From contig CBCOYO010000003.1 of assembly GCA_965114465.1 (NCBI GenBank), forward strand, positions 677-57,444: a stretch of 56,768 nucleotides of DNA. Reading direction: 5' to 3'. The translations under genes and the position numbers were made by a program. The notes beneath the pieces were generated by a model, which made no database searches, was not told the origin of the DNA, and was given only the letters and a program-made list of their open reading frames with translations. Shown piece by piece: positions 40,912 to 51,412 of the stretch (position 1 is the first letter of the stretch; the number at the start of each line of letters is the position of its first letter). Source of the stretch: an uncultured Lachnospiraceae bacterium. GTDB lineage: Bacteria; Bacillota; Clostridia; Lachnospirales; Lachnospiraceae.

Positions 40912-41448
40912 TTATCCAGTAAAAGAACTGTTTTGCTTTCTATAAGTATCGTTGTCTTTTTGGCTTAATTCACGCTCTACCTGTGCTAATTTTCGCTCTA
41001 GTTCTTTGGTTTTTTGTTCATCCCCAGAAGCGGACATAATTTCCTGCTCCAATTGTTTCTTTTTCTCTTTCAATTTCTCAATCTCTCTGTCAACCTTGTC
41101 CGTATTCGCAACACATTTCTCCTCCGGATTTTGAGAATTTTCTTCCTCTACTTTAGACTGTTTATTTTCTTTTCCATCCTTAGATTCCTCTATATCCCGC
41201 GCTTTCTTTGGATCGTCAAAAACAATCTTGCGGTTTCCATTTTCGTCCCGTTCTAGCCGATACAGACCGCTTGGTTTTTCACCTGACTTTTCACTGCTGA
41301 TATATTCATCCTGCGGCGCAGATGCCTTATCTGATTCTTTTTCCTTTTCCTCTACTTTCTTTGTTTTGTCAATCTGCTGCTCCTCTTTCAGCCTTTCTGC
41401 ATAGTCAGTTTTGACATAATTGTGGTTACCATTAATTTCCATAGACAT
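40912..41448 (-). CDS. Hypothetical charged coiled-coil protein (FlxA-like C-terminus)
   Basis: DEYISSE, NTDKVDREIEKLKEKKKQLEQ, KDNDTYRKQ. Confidence 0.6.
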   Translation of the reverse strand: MSMEINGNHNYVKTDYAERLKEEQQIDKTKKVEEKEKESDKASAPQDEYISSEKSGEKPSGLYRLERDENGNRKIVFDDPKKARDIEESKDGKENKQSKVEEENSQNPEEKCVANTDKVDREIEKLKEKKKQLEQEIMSASGDEQKTKELERKLAQVERELSQKDNDTYRKQNSSFTG

Positions 41449-41678
41449 AGATTTTACCTCCTAAATTTTGTTATCAGGCAGTTTTATTATTACAGTTAAG
41501 CCAAGCCATCACAAACGTTTTAGACAGCCTCTTAGATAAAAACAATGCTGTATTTATTCTGCCTTGCATTATCTTTTTCGACTAAGGAGTCCAACAAATA
41601 AAGTACTTTGCTGTGAGATGCATTCTAAATGCTGTGGAATGTAACTCTTATGAAATTTTAATCTTACGCTATTTATCT

Positions 41679-41816
41679 TGGAAAAGGATGGAATCGAACC
41701 ACCATCGCCCGCTCCCTAAAATTATAATTGTAATTTATATATCACTGTTGCTGTCCATTTCACATAAAACATGAAACCGATTTTTTACGGGTACTCTACC
41801 ATTGAGCTACTTTTCC
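41679..41816 (-). ncRNA. tRNA-mimic RNA with ~80-nt insert in place of the anticodon loop
   Basis: Acceptor GGAAAAG/CTTTTCC, D arm TAGCTCAATGGTAGAGT, stem CCCGT/GCGGG, T arm GGTGG-TTCGATT-CCATC; insert holds ACAGCAA. Confidence 0.8.
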
Positions 41817-41934
41817 ATATACTATTTTATAATACTAAGGGCAAAAAGATTTGCCGTTCAACTGCGCCACCTGCACGCCGCATAACGGCAGCTTTCCTTT
41901 GTGCGGCTGTGTGCATATTGTTATACTTAGGAAC

Positions 41935-42134
41935 GGGGCTTCCGCATTAAGGCAAGCGCATACAAGATAGTCTGGCAATGCGCTGGAATTTATACTGCTT
42001 AACAGTTAAAATTTCCAAGTAACCTGACTACATAACGCCAGCCATATACGTTTAACCAGTGCAGTACGGTAAATTCTGGCGTTATGTAGTATATACTATA
42101 TCTTGTATAATCAAAGCTTCATTGCAGCAGACCC
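41935..42134. mobile_element. Family A element with a family C element (41991-42093) nested at TATA
   Basis: A-type ends flank a 103-bp sequence whose inverted copy is 46208-46310. Confidence 0.78.
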
Positions 42135-42253
42135 TCATCTACCCATGCCAATATCTCCTAATACCGCCGACAACCGTCTGCACTAATTAGACAGCTATAC
42201 CACCATCCATAAGCTGCTTACACCAATTAGACAGCTATGCCGCCATAAGCTAC

Positions 42254-43738
42254 TTACGCTGATATTTTCCGATACCGTTCGCTGTTTACCACTTTCATCA
42301 TAAGTTCATAAGGTGTTGTTCCGATATTTTCCATAACATCCCGAAAAATATTTGTCGAGTATCCAGATACCAAAGAAACACTATTGTCATTTCTTGCCGC
42401 ATGGAATGTTGCATTGGCGGCGTTTACATTCCAAAATACAACCTGCGGAATGGAGTAGCCTGCCGCTTGGTATCTGCGTTTCATTTCCTCATAAAATGTA
42501 ATGCGCTGCCCTTGTATTCCTTGCACACAATCAATTTGCATATCAGATATTACGATTATCGCCATTGGCATTTCACTTGGTTTCACACCACCAGAAACTG
42601 CTGTATGAAGCAAAAGCGCAAATCCAGCTTCAAGGTTGGTACTGCCGCCCCAAGGCGCACTTTGCAAAATCCGAAAATTATCAAGCAATGTTGTGCCATT
42701 TAGCATAATATATCTTGGTGCGCTTTCGAATGTCATAAATAAATCTTTCAAACTACCTTTATTGCGCTGTGCAAAATACATTGCCAAAGCAGACGCCACA
42801 ATGCCCGGCTTTACGCTTCTATGCGCATACCTACTCCACATCGATCCAGATGTATCACACATCACAAGTACATTTCCAGTACACAAATCAGGCAGCCCAT
42901 TCCACATTACCTCTAAATCTGGCGTATATTGGTTATTTTTATGGAGTATATTAATAATATCACAAGGATTTACTGCTGCCATATTTATTTTTTCTTTTCC
43001 TATGGCAGCATTTTTCAAATAACGCTTCCACCGTAGGCTGTCGTGTGCCGCTATTGCCTTTCTGTTCTTTAATAAAAAACGGGAACTGCACTTTGCGTAT
43101 TCTATTTCATTCCAATTTCCGGCACACATTTTCGCTTCTGGAATATCAATATACCGCCGCAGCGCTCGCAGTTTTTTCTTATATTCACGCATCGTCTGAA
43201 ACGAATATCCTAATTTTTGTGCTGTCAGCAGCCCTAATTTTTTCGTTTTCTCAACAGCGGAATCTGGTGTCGCAATCCATTTTGCAAGCAGTGACACGCT
43301 TTTTCCCTGTTGCATCTGCGCAAAATCCAGTTCAAACTGTTCCTTGCAAAATGCCCACATCGCCGCTTCGGCAGGCGTGCCAATCAGGCAGTATAAATCC
43401 TTCGCATAACCAAACTCCAAAACCGCCCATAAATTTTTACTGACAGAATCCGTATTGATATACGCAAGTGCCCTTAGCATCTGTTGAAATGTACTGCGTT
43501 CCCCATAACCGCCGCGGATATCCCGTGTATAAAATAACAACTTTACTGCAATGTCCGCATCTTCCTGAAACGCCTTAGAAAACAGCAATTCCTTTTCCTC
43601 TGCCTTTGCGTTGCGCATTGCACCGGAACGTGCAAACATATCCAAGCAGTTAGAGCCTGTTACAATTTTTGCATCTGCCCCCTTCGATGTCTTTCCCCAT
43701 GACATAGATTCTATAATAGACGCTCGCAGCCGATTCAT
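42254..43738 (-). CDS. DUF2828-type protein: helical (TROVE/Ro-like) region plus vWA domain
   Basis: LFYTRDIRGGYGER, SLLAKW, MIDAS DTSGS, WGGSTNL, VISDMQ, VFWNV, LVSGYS. Confidence 0.8.
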   Translation of the reverse strand: MNRLRASIIESMSWGKTSKGADAKIVTGSNCLDMFARSGAMRNAKAEEKELLFSKAFQEDADIAVKLLFYTRDIRGGYGERSTFQQMLRALAYINTDSVSKNLWAVLEFGYAKDLYCLIGTPAEAAMWAFCKEQFELDFAQMQQGKSVSLLAKWIATPDSAVEKTKKLGLLTAQKLGYSFQTMREYKKKLRALRRYIDIPEAKMCAGNWNEIEYAKCSSRFLLKNRKAIAAHDSLRWKRYLKNAAIGKEKINMAAVNPCDIINILHKNNQYTPDLEVMWNGLPDLCTGNVLVMCDTSGSMWSRYAHRSVKPGIVASALAMYFAQRNKGSLKDLFMTFESAPRYIMLNGTTLLDNFRILQSAPWGGSTNLEAGFALLLHTAVSGGVKPSEMPMAIIVISDMQIDCVQGIQGQRITFYEEMKRRYQAAGYSIPQVVFWNVNAANATFHAARNDNSVSLVSGYSTNIFRDVMENIGTTPYELMMKVVNSERYRKISA

Positions 43739-43776
43739 AATAATACCCCTATTTTTTCTTAACAATTTTTTTGAAA

Positions 43777-43848
43777 CCGCAGGAAAGCGGATACCCTTTT
43801 TAACAATTTCAAGTTGTGTTTAGAAGGATGGATACCCATAGCCTGCGG
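43777..43848 (-). ncRNA. Short hairpin RNA sharing the terminal stem motif of the adjacent Y-like RNA
   Basis: CCGCAGG-CTAT-GGGTATCC-ATCCTTCTA...GGGTATCC-GCTTT-CCTGCGG. Confidence 0.7.
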
Positions 43849-43854
43849 CTTATA

Positions 43855-43981
43855 CCGGAAAGCAGGTTTTCTTTTTGCAGCGCCTCTGCCACTGGGCCAC
43901 GTTTGGCGAACCAAACGGTCGGAATCGAACCGACGACTCTCTGCCCTGATCATGGATAGAAGGAGGAAAACCCATAGCCGG
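43855..43981 (-). ncRNA. Circularly permuted tRNA mimic, YrlA-type Y RNA architecture
   Basis: Long terminal stem; T arm GTCGG-TTCGATT-CCGAC; acceptor hairpin CGTTTGG-TTCG-CCAAACG; D arm TGGCCCAGTGGCAGAGGC. Confidence 0.85.
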
Positions 43982-43996
43982 ATAATTTTAATAATT

Positions 43997-46132
43997 TTAT
44001 AGATATTCCGCCATTATGACATCTGTGTCATAAGGTGTAATGCCGTCTTCTTCGTCAAAAACAATATCTGCCTGCGCTTTATCATAGCACTGGATGCCTC
44101 TGGCACAGATATGCAGATAAATCAATTGATATAGATTGGTTTTATGCATATTCACCATTGCATAGCTGGCAAGTTCTACACCGGATAAATTGGATTCCAC
44201 ATTATTGCCGCCATAATGTGAATGCACTGTGCCAAGGTTTACGTCGCACCAAATTATCTGGCGTGTTAAACAGTCAAAAATCACTGGAACACAAATGCAG
44301 CTCTGTGCAGTCAGGTCAATTTTCTGCTTAACAAGCGCCGGCTCATAGATCTCACCGCTGTTCACATCATGCCGTTCCATAAATCCAAAAGCAGCGTGCC
44401 CAAGTTCCGAAAACTTCTGGCGGGTATAAGAATATACTTGATAAACAATATACCTGCCGCCGTATTTTATTACACTGTTGATATCCGTATCCAGAAACTC
44501 GCTGACCCCCTCCGCCTGATACGGGCCGCCGTCCACAATATCTCCCGAATGACACGCTTTATACTTTTCTGAACGCAGATTCGTATAGGAAACGTGTTCT
44601 AAATAATGAAAGTTTTCATCAAGGATCAATGCCGACAAATCAAGGTCAACCCGTTCGCCGCTCTCCGTATTTGTCCACCAGATAAAACCACGGATTGCCC
44701 GTGCGCCTCCCTTTATCGAGATCCGAGAACCACGAACTAATGTATGCGCCGCTTTTGACGCAGAACGCTGATTAAACGGTACAATATAGTTTTTCATTTT
44801 CTCCGACAAATAAACTTTTCCCATTGCTTCCTTCTGGGCAAATCGCTGTATCAGAGCACGCTCACAAATCGCAATAGCATGCTCACAAAGTTCCTCTTTT
44901 ATATCCACAAGCGGTTCAATAATCCGGCCGTCTGCCATATTTCCCTTTGGAAAATAATAACGCAGTGCGCCACCGTTGCGATAGCGGAAATGCTCCCGCA
45001 CTTGCAGCAGCACCGGAACGGATACCTCTGCCGCCACATCTTCCCAAGCCGAAAGTACCTGCTTATGACTCTCGGGCAATTCGTCCAACCGCAGCAAATG
45101 ATCCAGACGCCTTGCCAACTCACCAGGACGGTTTCTTAACAGTTTTAACGCACTTGTCACGTCCTTTGCTTTGATTGCATCAGCAACACTCCCCGCAAAT
45201 GTGACAATCCTTTCTCCATTGCGCAATTTCGCAAATACCCGCTTTACACGGTCATACTTACCGTCTGGATATTCGCCGGGATGCAGCCGCTCACCAAGAC
45301 GTTTAAAGATTTCCGCTCTGGCAGCCATTCCCTCCTCTAACCCTGACGCATCGTTTAACAGTCCCATCAACAGCCTGCGCACGGGTCTGGAAAAGCTGAT
45401 AAATCTTGGCGGCTCTGCTAAACTGACATCACTGTCAGAAAGTGCCGCTGCCAAACGCAGCACATCCGTTGGCGTCTTAAAATAGGGGTTCAATGCTTCC
45501 GCCAACGTTTCCGTTTTAGCAAGCGGATATTTTTCTATGTAACATTTGCCCATCCATGCTGCATTTTCCTTAATCGGAATACTATCCGGAATATACATAC
45601 AAATTCCGCCCAAATTCGCAAAGCACCATGCAATATCTTCTTTATCCTGTAGCGACAAAGAACTTTTAGCAGACAATAAATTTTGAAATAAATCTATTGC
45701 TTCCTCCCTGCTGCCCAGCGTTAATACCTGACAAGCAGCAATATCCGTTAACACTTTCCGCTCCGCTTTAAACGAAGTTGGCATCATTGTTCCATTGCTC
45801 CAATAATGCACCAACGCATTGAGATACAACCTGCCCGCCGGCGCCGCCATAACCTCCATAGGAAAATTCCGATACATGGGACGGTACTTAAGATCAGCGC
45901 CTTTGCTCTTTTTCAAAAGTTCAACCAATTCCCAACATAGCCGTCCAAGCTGTTCCGTGGAATAGCGTAAAAGTTCCTCATATAGTTCTCGCGAAAATGT
46001 ATAGCCAAGCGGTTCAATATTTTTCATTAATGTCGCCACTGAAAGGTCATTGAGTGCGTTCCTTTGCGTCATATTTTCTTTTTCTTCCATAATCCATATT
46101 TTATTTTTTCTCAATAACATCTCACATACCAT
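43997..46132 (-). CDS. Large helical protein with C-terminal TerD-like domain (possible divergent TROVE/Ro-like)
   Basis: PMYRNFP.EV, TPTDVLRLA, RPGELARRLD.LLR; TerD-like VDLDLSA...HSGD...EFLD. Confidence 0.65.
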   Translation of the reverse strand: MVCEMLLRKNKIWIMEEKENMTQRNALNDLSVATLMKNIEPLGYTFSRELYEELLRYSTEQLGRLCWELVELLKKSKGADLKYRPMYRNFPMEVMAAPAGRLYLNALVHYWSNGTMMPTSFKAERKVLTDIAACQVLTLGSREEAIDLFQNLLSAKSSLSLQDKEDIAWCFANLGGICMYIPDSIPIKENAAWMGKCYIEKYPLAKTETLAEALNPYFKTPTDVLRLAAALSDSDVSLAEPPRFISFSRPVRRLLMGLLNDASGLEEGMAARAEIFKRLGERLHPGEYPDGKYDRVKRVFAKLRNGERIVTFAGSVADAIKAKDVTSALKLLRNRPGELARRLDHLLRLDELPESHKQVLSAWEDVAAEVSVPVLLQVREHFRYRNGGALRYYFPKGNMADGRIIEPLVDIKEELCEHAIAICERALIQRFAQKEAMGKVYLSEKMKNYIVPFNQRSASKAAHTLVRGSRISIKGGARAIRGFIWWTNTESGERVDLDLSALILDENFHYLEHVSYTNLRSEKYKACHSGDIVDGGPYQAEGVSEFLDTDINSVIKYGGRYIVYQVYSYTRQKFSELGHAAFGFMERHDVNSGEIYEPALVKQKIDLTAQSCICVPVIFDCLTRQIIWCDVNLGTVHSHYGGNNVESNLSGVELASYAMVNMHKTNLYQLIYLHICARGIQCYDKAQADIVFDEEDGITPYDTDVIMAEYL

Positions 46133-46207
46133 GACTATACTCCTATCGTTGTACTTGTACCTCGTTTTGATTTAGCAAAGCGCAGTACCCGTTCTCAAGA
46201 CCCTCAC

Positions 46208-46310
46208 TATAATACATAACGCTAGAATTTACTGTTCTGTACTGGTTAAACGTACATGGCTGGCGCTATGTAGTCAGGTTACTTGGAAATTTTAACTGTT
46301 AAGCAGTATA
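46208..46310. mobile_element. Family C element (inverted relative to 41991-42093)
   Basis: 103 bp, TATA ends, ...GTCAGGTTACTTGGAAATTTTAACTGTTAAGCAGTATA. Confidence 0.85.
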
Positions 46311-46672
46311 AATTCTATACGAAGCTGCAATACTGCAATATTTTTTCTATCTCTCTAAAGAATTGTTCAGAAATTACTTGTGACAAGTACGCCGTATAAA
46401 TGTTCCTATGCAAATTACTTTGTAATCAGAAGAACATCGCAGGCATAGAAGGCAAAGGCATAAAGATCAATGCCTTATGTCAAGATTTTCTGATGCTGCA
46501 GACGGACATTTAAACAAGTAATTGTTATGCGTAATTTATTAACAATTCCTAACTGTTGATATTATCCTACCAGATTTTAGGAAGTAAATCATTTAAAAAA
46601 AGTTGCGAAGTGAAAGTTGACAAGGCGAAATTGCTAAGTTAGATTTGTTACAGAATAGTAACAATTCAGGCA

Positions 46673-46770
46673 GGGGCTGTCGCATTAAGACAAACGAATA
46701 CAAAATAGTCTAACACTGTGCTAAGATTTATACCATATCTGGTATTATCAAAGATTATTGCGACAGCCCC
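46673..46770. mobile_element. Family A element
   Basis: Perfect GGGGCTGTCGCA/TGCGACAGCCCC ends; close reverse copy of 35704-35801. Confidence 0.88.
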
Positions 46771-46934
46771 GTAATAAAATGTAATGGTTGGAGGTATCCA
46801 GCCCATCGCGAAGCGATTTCCAATGGCTGGATATGTAACAGTTCAATGGGTTATCTGAACTGTTACACGGATTAAATTATTTCAAGTAAAAGGTCAGATT
46901 TTATTATAGTAATAAAAGAACAGTTGTGATAAGA

Positions 46935-47025
46935 TATACTCACGAACGTTAAATTTCATCCTATTATTTCAGATAGTTATGCTCGTGGGCTGGCGTAATG
47001 AGCAAATCGAAGCGTTCGCCAGTAT
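46935..47025. mobile_element. Family D element
   Basis: Homologous to 40774-40864. Confidence 0.65.
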
Positions 47026-47057
47026 CATAGAAAATGCAGACAGGAGAATACAACAAT

Positions 47058-47621
47058 ATGGCAGCTAAAATAAAGCTTCCTATGGGAATTGAAAATTTTG
47101 AGGAAATCCGTACAATGGGATATTACTATATTGATAAAACAAAGCTTATTTGCGATCTATTAGAAAATTTAGGAAAAGTAACACTCTTTACCCGTCCAAG
47201 ACGTTTTGGGAAAACTTTAAATATTAGTATGCTAAAATACTTTTTTGAAATCGGAACAAATCCGTCCCTTTTTGATGGTCTTGCAGTTTCCCAAGAAAAA
47301 GAACTTTGCGCACAATATATGGGAAAATTCCCTGTTCTTACGATTCGTTTAAAAGATGTAAGCGGTTTCCATTTTAATACTGCCAAAAGAAAACTGCGCA
47401 GCATTATCGGGACGGAAGCACTCCGCTTCCAATTTCTTACGCAAAGCGCAGCCTTAACAGAAACCGAACGACAGCAGTATCAAAAAATCATTTCCTTAAA
47501 CGAAAATGGCGAATATGCAATGTCGGATGGGCTTTTAGAAGACAGTCTGTTGATTTATGAAAACCATATACTGCTACGGCATAGCCTGCTTCAAAAACGC
47601 TGTAAAGTCGTATTCCAATAG
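47058..47621 (+). pseudogene. Truncated AAA-ATPase-like gene (N-terminal part only)
   Basis: LPMGIENFEEIR..YYYIDKT, TRPRRFGKTLN; ends before the IDEYD Walker B seen in paralog 49676-51412. Confidence 0.8.
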
Positions 47622-49675: not shown

Positions 49676-51412
49676 TTATCCTATCAGGCATTCTTTCCCC
49701 CGAAATGCAAACCCATATTTGCGAATTTGCTCTGGTGCATAACCACACGATATGAGCTCTGTTTCATACTGCTTTTCCTCAATCTGAGCACGGGCATTTG
49801 CCAGAGTATCTTCAAGTGTTTTCTCGTCCTCATCGGGATCTAATACTTTAAACTCAAAGATAAAAGCCTTTTTCGTTTTATCGAGCGGCTCTATCATCAC
49901 ATCATAACGTCCAAAACCACTCTCTCTGTTAGAGCGTACTTTGTAGGCATCTGAAAGATTTACTACCATACCAAGCACAAAACCATGGTAAAACCGCTCT
50001 GGTTCTGCCTGATCGGAAGGCTTGTTCCCGCTGTCAAAGGAACTGAACGTGTTTAGAGCAACCTTATTCATAAATGTGTTCATCTTTTTTACATTGTCAT
50101 TTAGAAGTGCTTTCATAAACTCATTGTAATATACTTCTGTATCATTTTTAAACCATCCTTTTACCATTTTGCGAAACATTCGCTTAGTTTCAAGGTTCGT
50201 AATGGTGAGTGTATACCAAGTATCCCCTTCCTCGCCTACTCCTTCCTCATCGGTATCCAGCATTCTCACATTTAACACTTTCAGATATCCTGTTGCAAGT
50301 AAAAGACTCCACACTGCATCTGCGCTGCCGTTTAACTGATCAAACACTATTTTTTCATCAATTTCAGCCTCAAAGCTTTTACCTTGCAGGAGATCTTCCA
50401 TTATCTGTTTTATATCCGAGTTTCCTTTTTGAATCAACTGATTCACCAGTCCATTCCCGCTTGTGTTAGACCAATAGGTATCATATTTTCCTTTTTTATT
50501 GATAAAAGACACAATCGACCATGGATTATAAATATCAGCACAAACACCGAATATAAATCCATCATACCATCTTTTTACTTTTTGTTTCTGTTCCCCTAAC
50601 CCCGCATCTTCAAGCGCCATAAAAACTTCGTCTTCTGTAAATCCAAAAGATGTCATATATTTATCAGAAGTTGTCGTAATAACATCAAGGTTATTCATAC
50701 CAGTGAAAATACTTTCTTTTGCAACCCTTGTTATACCTGTGATTAATCCGCGTTCAAGGTATTCGTTTGTCTTGAATGTGGAGTTGAACAAACCACTAAA
50801 AAATCTGACAGTTTCTTCCCAGTACCCCAAAATCCATGCATCCTGCATCGGTGTATCATATTCATCCAAGATAATAATTACCTTTTGACCATAATAGCGC
50901 TGCATAAAACCTGCCATTGAACGTATTGCGCCATCCGCTAATTCGCTGCTCATTCCAAGCTCTATTTCCTGATAATATTTCTGCTCTCTTTCATTTAGCA
51001 GATTACCCTCTAACAAATAGTCATTTTGATTATATAAATCAGTAATTACTTCTGTTATCTTAAACAGCATCTCTTTATATGTTGTCGCTTTCACATTGGC
51101 AAAACTTAAAAAAATTACTGGAAAAGTCCCCTGCAATCTTCGGTATTTATATTCCCCATCCAGAGATTTTTCCTCCCATATAGACAAGCCTTCAAACAAT
51201 TCACTCCTTCCTGCATATTTATTAGAGAAAAAACATTCTATCATACTCATATTTAATGTTTTTCCAAATCTGCGCGGGCGTGTGATTAAAGTAACTTTAT
51301 CAGCGTTTTCCCACCATTCCTTGATAAAATCAGTTTTATCAATATAAAATATATGTCCCGTTCTCACTTCCTCAAAATTCTGATATCCAAGTCCTGCCTT
51401 ATTTTCATTCAT
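49676..51412 (-). CDS. AAA-ATPase-like protein with C-terminal PD-(D/E)XK nuclease domain
   Basis: TRPRRFGKTLN, LDEYDTP, SNRESGFGRYDV...IFEFK. Confidence 0.92.
   Translation of the reverse strand: MNENKAGLGYQNFEEVRTGHIFYIDKTDFIKEWWENADKVTLITRPRRFGKTLNMSMIECFFSNKYAGRSELFEGLSIWEEKSLDGEYKYRRLQGTFPVIFLSFANVKATTYKEMLFKITEVITDLYNQNDYLLEGNLLNEREQKYYQEIELGMSSELADGAIRSMAGFMQRYYGQKVIIILDEYDTPMQDAWILGYWEETVRFFSGLFNSTFKTNEYLERGLITGITRVAKESIFTGMNNLDVITTTSDKYMTSFGFTEDEVFMALEDAGLGEQKQKVKRWYDGFIFGVCADIYNPWSIVSFINKKGKYDTYWSNTSGNGLVNQLIQKGNSDIKQIMEDLLQGKSFEAEIDEKIVFDQLNGSADAVWSLLLATGYLKVLNVRMLDTDEEGVGEEGDTWYTLTITNLETKRMFRKMVKGWFKNDTEVYYNEFMKALLNDNVKKMNTFMNKVALNTFSSFDSGNKPSDQAEPERFYHGFVLGMVVNLSDAYKVRSNRESGFGRYDVMIEPLDKTKKAFIFEFKVLDPDEDEKTLEDTLANARAQIEEKQYETELISCGYAPEQIRKYGFAFRGKECLIG

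Follow-up and report, generated by a model that had tools for sequence, protein, structure and literature searches.

A candidate YrlA-like RNA with a distinctive terminal helix beside the gene for a predicted Ro60-like, TerD-containing protein

Introduction

As excerpts of PMC4201824 describe them, bacterial Y RNAs can occur two to a locus, one tRNA-like and one a plain hairpin, and both members of the pair, YrlA and YrlB, derive from a single precursor. Part of PMC12135203 extends the theme to phages, where a Ro60 protein with two Yrl RNAs engages the host PNPase. The purpose of the tRNA-like domain in bacterial Y RNAs is still treated as unsettled in the excerpts available from PMC4201824, 10.1101/312249 and PMC7790460, while the available passages of PMC7824862 name ROT/TROVE proteins and TerD separately and draw no link between them. 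Here we describe a locus within the window, by which we mean the whole 56,768-nucleotide stretch of DNA from an uncultured Lachnospiraceae bacterium that was analyzed. Three of its features concern us first.

43997..46132, minus strand: 711-aa protein, the likely partner of RNA 1; predicted Ro60-like helical-repeat ring with a TerD domain at about residues 475-659
43855..43981, minus strand: RNA 1, YrlA-like, a docking helix plus a permuted tRNA-like domain, from predicted fold and model match
43780..43845, minus strand: RNA 2, YrlB-like, a second docking helix without tRNA cargo, from a folding z of -3.9 and model match

The locus shares with the YrlA/YrlB-Rsr system (RF02553) the T-acceptor-D order on an extended anticodon-type stem formed by the 5' and 3' ends, the retained elbow bases and Levitt pair, a variable closed acceptor loop, a length of about 127 nt, a second RNA in tandem that forms a simple hairpin around a pyrimidine-rich loop, and a same-strand neighbor gene for a ring protein, here a predicted one. 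Unlike YrlA, RNA 1 has no GNCGAA; it carries instead a two-stranded CUAU/NNUUU internal loop and a UCCUUCU tract, and it falls below the Rfam cut-off. Unlike Rsr, the 711-aa protein has no Pfam TROVE match and no DxSxS, carries TerD, and is not in an rtcBA operon here. The Thermus phage phiLo Ro60 with Yrl1/Yrl2 (PMC12135203, in part; PDB 9KOP, 9L5Y) offers a second comparison: it too is a phage-borne ring protein with adjacent stem-bulge-stem RNAs, and it is among the best non-TerD structural matches of our 711-aa model, but its RNAs use CGAA and the protein is a canonical HEAT plus vWA Ro60 without TerD. A literature search found no paper on the helix motif or on an RNA partner of the 711-aa family; a prior mention may exist in Burroughs and Aravind 2016, in Sim et al. 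2020 or in supplements.

Anatomy of RNA 1

RNA 1 starts 15 nt past the stop (43997) of the 711-aa gene, the spacing that the original prediction had given for a TerD-tailed gene upstream. Its parts, from 5' to 3', are as follows.

43958..43981, minus strand: docking helix, 5' strand, with a 4-bp stem, a CUAU loop strand, an 8-bp stem and a pyrimidine tract, CUCCUUCU
43918..43934, minus strand: T arm with a canonical 7-nt T loop
43900..43917, minus strand: acceptor-like 7-bp stem with a 4-nt UUCG closing loop and no free CCA end
43882..43897, minus strand: D arm, 3 bp here versus 4 bp in most relatives
43855..43871, minus strand: docking helix, 3' strand, with an 8-bp stem, a GCUUU loop strand and a 4-bp stem

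The outer stem pairs 43981-43978 with 43858-43855 (4 bp), CUAU faces GCUUU in the internal loop, and the inner stem pairs 43973-43966 with 43871-43864 (8 bp); the pyrimidine tract occupies 43965-43958. There is an anticodon-type stem of 4 bp (43944-43941 with 43880-43877) and no anticodon loop. U8 and G9 lie between the acceptor and the D arm, the D arm holds A14, G15 and the GG pair, and the window copy has both G15 and C48, the bases of the Levitt pair. The UUCG loop is closed by a G-C pair. The original prediction had read a T arm, a UUCG-closed acceptor and a D arm carried on a terminal helix of the minus strand; rereading letter by letter returns the same elements, and a strict T-acceptor-D descriptor has one match in the 3.46-Mb genome, RNA 1 itself, and none in 200 random windows. 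The arrangement is not a product of chance. The folding energy of RNA 1 is ordinary (z -0.47). Pair probabilities are 0.78-1.0 for the terminal helix, T arm and acceptor hairpin, versus 0.01 for the D stem and 0.09 for the anticodon-type stem; the latter two stems rest on homologues because energy alone does not form them.

The likeness to the YrlA layout, also proposed from the outset, is confirmed for the order of the arms, and relatives of RNA 1 match the Rfam YrlA model below its gathering cut-off of 69 (seven matches in seven related loci, 33-45 bits). The suggested search with YrlA and tRNA models gives a more qualified answer for RNA 1 itself, which scores 17.6 bits on RF02553 and is not matched by ARAGORN; Rfam scans of the whole window and of 41300-47200 likewise return no YrlA match. 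The GNCGAA-type Rsr-binding sequence, reported as missing, is indeed lacking: none of the 37 family members has it in the first 30 nt. With no GNCGAA and 17.6 bits against 69, RNA 1 is not YrlA proper. On the sequence evidence we take it to be a real, conserved YrlA-like RNA of an uncatalogued branch.

Conservation across the RNA family

An RNA family model was built from 19 cargo-bearing copies. In the source genome it matches RNA 1 and RNA 2 and nothing else; RNA 2, whose stem extends to about 43851-43774, is a copy that the original prediction had overlooked. A single match to the 5' motif elsewhere in the genome (contig C73, near 12972, plus strand) is not matched by the RNA model and is probably due to chance. 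The helix motif reads GGCUAU, an 8-bp stem, UCCUUCU and, further on, NNUUUCC, and it recurs beside 711-aa family genes in gut bacteria and many phages. Its copies occur in tandem arrays, with and without tRNA cargo, and some loci have cargo-less copies alone. Of the 166 distinct modules recovered by a parser that requires pairing, 135 have neither a T nor a D motif, 30 have both, and 1 has the T motif alone. The nonstandard terminal helix first described for RNA 1 is real and without GNCGAA, but the unit that the family repeats is this helix and not the tRNA part.

Covariation was assessed in the 37 best model matches, all cargo-bearing. In this set 96.0% of the modeled pairs are paired and 28 of 33 pairs change on both sides, counts biased in the model's favor, since the alignment follows the model and its seeds, which supply 15 of the 37 rows, were picked for pairing. 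The two-sided changes include all 7 acceptor pairs and all 8 inner-stem pairs. None of 500 shuffles reaches the observed level, and slid controls give 38-45%. All six helices are kept by compensatory change in these tRNA-carrying relatives, among them the T, acceptor and D pairings, on whose conservation in homologous loci the original prediction had staked itself. The T loop, U8, A14 and the D-loop GG are each kept in 37/37, and the Levitt pair in 34/37. The UUCG acceptor loop is found in only two, RNA 1 and the copy in the sister strain. In a set of 129 distinct modules the stems vary freely but the loops keep their letters, GGCUAU in 96 modules and the pyrimidine tract in 118, a pattern that points to a putative protein-binding site.

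Among cultured phages, the RNA lies beside a 711-aa family gene in Weasels2, with cargo, and in XacN1, as three plain copies. The WXIN locus and three bacterial ones (L187, L190, L384/L387) give no match to the model. At E up to 0.001 the model also matches 55 of 66 genus genomes; the 15 strongest of these matches that lie away from a 711-aa family gene are without the motif and are probably tandem tRNA junctions.

The upstream protein

By sequence, the 711-aa protein has a weak TerD match and no Pfam TROVE match. The model NF041916 (MXAN_6230/SCO0854 family RING domain protein) matches it with E 2e-119, at 400 bits against a cut-off of 600; that family is named for its RING domain, and the model name gives no RNA link. 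A predicted structure (pLDDT 84, pTM 0.73) places TerD at about residues 475-659 (Z 13.5-16.4). The model outside TerD can be aligned to seven Ro60 chains, which come from Deinococcus, phage phiLo and vertebrates, with 307-333 residues matched and an rmsd of 4.4-5.1. These alignments begin at residue 35-144 of the model, end at residue 705-711 and take in almost all of each Ro60 chain; their Z of 5.9-8.2 is one that, according to the search tool, helical proteins commonly reach. In a search of 48,161 chains, Rsr and phiLo Ro60 are the top rows once TerD is set aside. Two CAND1 rows reach Z 8.4-8.5 over 98 residues; the remaining rows unrelated to TerD either span about 60-115 residues of generic helical repeat or exceed an rmsd of 8. 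In Foldseek, phiLo Ro60 comes next after TerD (E 4.8e-3), and a phage TROVE protein is matched at E 2.4e-4.

Profile methods do not recover this relationship. The family profile gives 0.1-0.3% probability against a TROVE set and against DUF2828, including the 0.1% that hhalign gives against TROVE, where the comparison set is narrow (43 sequences, Neff 2.6). An HMM search with the 711-aa family matched no Ro60 chain, and the vWA metal motif DxSxS is absent from its conserved columns; a conserved QRSAS at 455-459 meets the DxSxS position only in a nonsignificant alignment. An ESM Atlas search with the 711-aa protein returned unnamed or TerD clusters only, under 0.9. PF05731 has no match in the 80%-complete genome, and both proteins flanking the RNAs are Ro-like only by predicted fold or profile. 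Judging from the structure model, we consider it likely that the 711-aa protein is kin to Ro60, and we predict a remodeled Ro60-like ring into which TerD has been inserted. The different partner suggested at the outset would not be an unrelated protein, given the predicted Ro60-like ring. The family is large, with 1,856 clusters at 50% identity (E up to 1e-30) in gut bacteria and large phages. N-terminal ankyrin repeats occur in two (P0361, P0378) of six long members scanned.

Co-occurrence of helix and protein

The association between helix and protein was counted in both directions. Starting from the motif, a scan of viral contigs for the 5' strand of the helix gave 140 loci, of which the 81 of at least 4 kb were counted and 59 short ones left out. 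In 58 of the 81, the motif lies 0-484 nt from the open frame of a same-strand 711-aa family gene; the other 23 have no such gene within reach. Starting from the protein, the strict motif is found at 50 of 61 711-aa family loci, corresponding to 21 of 28 clusters at 70% identity; in the seven clusters without it, the RNA model gives full divergent matches in three and a partial match in a fourth. We note that locus counts overstate independence because the loci, phage loci included, are partly redundant. Within the genus, 5 of 66 genomes have a 711-aa family gene; the motif adjoins the gene in all five, and full tRNA cargo is present in three. A contig scan with one protein query had yielded 1 locus only. 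The upstream TerD-tailed gene had been named as the probable partner, and co-occurrence in both directions and in the genus genomes now argues for the same protein; from these sequence associations, the 711-aa protein is the likely partner of RNA 1.

Proposed function and alternatives

The account that we prefer, and regard as moderately probable, is that RNA 1 is a Y-RNA-like small RNA that docks by its terminal helix on the predicted Ro60-like ring of the 711-aa protein and whose exposed tRNA-shaped domain tethers a tRNA-recognizing enzyme, for RNA quality control or repair. By analogy with Rsr, YrlA and YrlB, the conserved terminal helix would bind the ring. The exposed, anticodon-less tRNA elbow would hold an effector, PNPase or an RNA ligase for example, a step modeled on the Y RNA that links Rsr to PNPase. 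The RNAs may be cut from one transcript, again as in the described systems, with the cargo-less RNA 2 as the putative counterpart of YrlB. A separate lineage would then keep the tRNA-shaped cargo while the docking motif and the protein change, which makes the cargo the constrained part, and the lineage of RNA 1 would be a new system in which to find the effector of that cargo. If the account is true, an RNA ligand and a fold can be assigned to a large unnamed protein family of gut bacteria and large phages, including the cultured XacN1 and Weasels2, and the locus represents a separate branch of bacterial Y RNA–Ro60 systems.

The same particle could instead act as a decoy, in which a tRNA-shaped domain without a cleavable anticodon loop inhibits tRNA-cutting defense nucleases or toxins and the protein is a stabilizing carrier. 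Large phages often carry the helix family, in the midst of tRNA and tmRNA clusters, and the mimic resembles a tRNA opened in the anticodon loop, with a purine at position 37 in 34 of the 37 members, A38 in 26 and U33 in 20. Competitive inhibition of an anticodon nuclease is raised as a possible role of YrlA in part of PMC7790460. This cannot be the whole function, however, because most helix copies (135 of the 166 parsed modules) are without tRNA cargo, and some loci have no cargo copy at all; we judge the decoy reading unlikely.

We give little credence to a reading in which the helices are cis-acting sites in the leader or trailer of the gene's own mRNA, for autoregulation or stabilization, and not free RNAs. 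The copies do lie on the gene's strand, on both sides of it and within tens to hundreds of nt, and contigs from RNA libraries run across gene and RNA, contigs being unable to show transcript ends. However, a full tRNA elbow with its tertiary bases kept, and closed helices in multicopy arrays, fit processed small RNAs, and an excerpt of PMC4201824 has YrlA and YrlB coming from one precursor in the same way.

The DUF2828 protein and the CAGCAA RNA

Downstream, the cassette holds a second protein and a further tRNA mimic.

42254..43738, minus strand: 494-aa DUF2828/DUF7788 vWA protein with a Ro60 fold, probably partnered with the CAGCAA RNA rather than with RNA 1
41679..41816, minus strand: tRNA mimic in normal order with a long CAGCAA-containing insert in the anticodon arm, belonging to the DUF2828 system

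The DUF2828 protein was first expected to be the partner of RNA 1. It is encoded directly downstream of the RNAs, starting about 40 nt after RNA 2, and its Ro60 fold is clear: the structure model (pLDDT 92.9) finds the Ro60 fold by Foldseek at E 1.2e-9, the profile matches the TROVE set (43 sequences, Neff 2.6) at 93.7%, and DxSxS is invariant in the family. We dropped this candidate, and now hold it to be very improbable, since its loci hold arrays of CAGCAA mimics instead. The motif is found at none of 182 DUF2828-only loci (0/60 clusters), and DUF2828 at none of the 81 loci of the motif-first scan; flanks with at least two RCAGCAA are seen at 76 of the 182, versus 2 of the 61 711-aa family loci. 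Among the fetched loci the two genes are adjacent only in the window's lineage. In that lineage, a sister strain (L001) retains both RNAs, a third helix copy and an intact, 96%-identical 711-aa gene, although the CAGCAA mimic and most of DUF2828 are gone; its contigs from four studies join 42515 to 43773, and three of them replace 41645-42132. The helix is tightly linked to the 711-aa family and not to DUF2828.

The insert of the CAGCAA RNA spans 76 nt and consists of a hairpin plus CAGCAA. In relatives and phages, DUF2828 genes are flanked by arrays of such mimics, mostly in normal tRNA order. The DUF2828/DUF7788 system (PHROG 850) resembles that of RNA 1 in placing a short docking motif at the anticodon position of a tRNA-like body, in forming arrays beside a Ro-fold gene and in having one permuted example; it differs in its motif, in its protein family and in the mostly normal order of its RNAs. 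The permuted example (L081:56-185, a DUF2828 locus) is a tRNA mimic on a CAGCAA scaffold, that is, the same cargo with the other docking motif. With two address codes side by side in the window, specificity can be tested crosswise, and the neighboring DUF2828/CAGCAA pair serves as a built-in specificity control. A broader proposal, which we put forward as speculative and doubtful, is that Ro60-type rings have diverged to use three or more orthogonal address codes, each with interchangeable tRNA-shaped cargo (GNCGAA with Rsr, CAGCAA with DUF2828, and GGCUAU/UCCUUCU with the TerD-inserted ring); in the third, the ring would be gated by TerD as a sensor of a ligand or of stress, and the mimic, having no anticodon, would neutralize or redirect tRNA-attacking nucleases in phage-host conflict.

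Tandem CAGCAA mimics upstream of DUF2828 (L014-L023) pair the T arm of one copy to the D arm of the next at their junctions, which resemble the proposed dimeric-tRNA origin of YrlA. Downstream of the window's CAGCAA mimic, 41520-41660 (minus strand) contains three further ACAGCA motifs, possibly decayed array members. Two 40-nt tandem repeats (42136-42262, minus strand) lie immediately past the DUF2828 stop, where the sister strain has three; the repeats resemble a tRNA 5' start plus D arm and, among the fetched loci, occur in the window's lineage only.

That RNA 1 is a permuted gene for a functional tRNA, or that two decayed tRNAs in tandem meet there by chance, is scarcely credible: the acceptor stem does have 7 bp, and tandem tRNA-like copies give the same T-then-D order at their junctions, but a helix replaces the anticodon loop, just 4 of 37 members have NCCA at the start of the acceptor loop, all 7 acceptor pairs show covariation between the two strands, ARAGORN finds no match, and the flanks hold the docking helix and not the other tRNA halves.

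Transcripts and gene neighborhood

Expression data consist of contigs from seven RNA runs, which give neither transcript ends nor levels. One 476-nt contig, from run X11, begins at RNA position 62 and leaves the 5' half of the RNA uncovered, with a depth of 1047 versus 16 over the upstream gene. We count this contig as no evidence, given that limit of the data and given that the contigs of the other runs do not stop at position 62. The promoter-like site at 44022-43994 does not exceed chance expectation, with 18 such sites against 15.2 expected.

Among 120 neighbor ORFs of at least 170 aa at 44 representative loci, nine are of RNA-repair or RNP type: an Rnl2-type ligase, an RtcB, two PNKP, two Thg1, a polyA/CCA-polymerase domain, a Band 7 and a vault-type protein. 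The cassette in the window has no RNA-repair gene. RNA-repair genes are not operon partners of the 711-aa family; the gene context pointing to RNA repair is at most suggestive. In Weasels2, RtcB lies about 3 kb downstream, and the source genome has two rtcB loci, on other contigs. On a phage contig (L230:6153-8576), a gene for a vault-type protein with MVP shoulder and repeat domains comes directly after the 711-aa homologue.

A 108-nt inverted repeat around the cassette (41986-42093 and 46208-46315) was considered as the cassette end and ruled out by its 75 copies in the genome; it is a hairpin-forming interspersed repeat, MITE- or REP-like, with no Rfam match. Three more interspersed repeat families, with 33, 11 and 15 genome copies, lie at 41935-41995, 46360-46548 and 46673-46870, at both cassette ends. 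Beside the cassette, a truncated AAA-ATPase-like ORF (47034-47621, plus strand) has a full-length look-alike at 49676-51412 on the minus strand.
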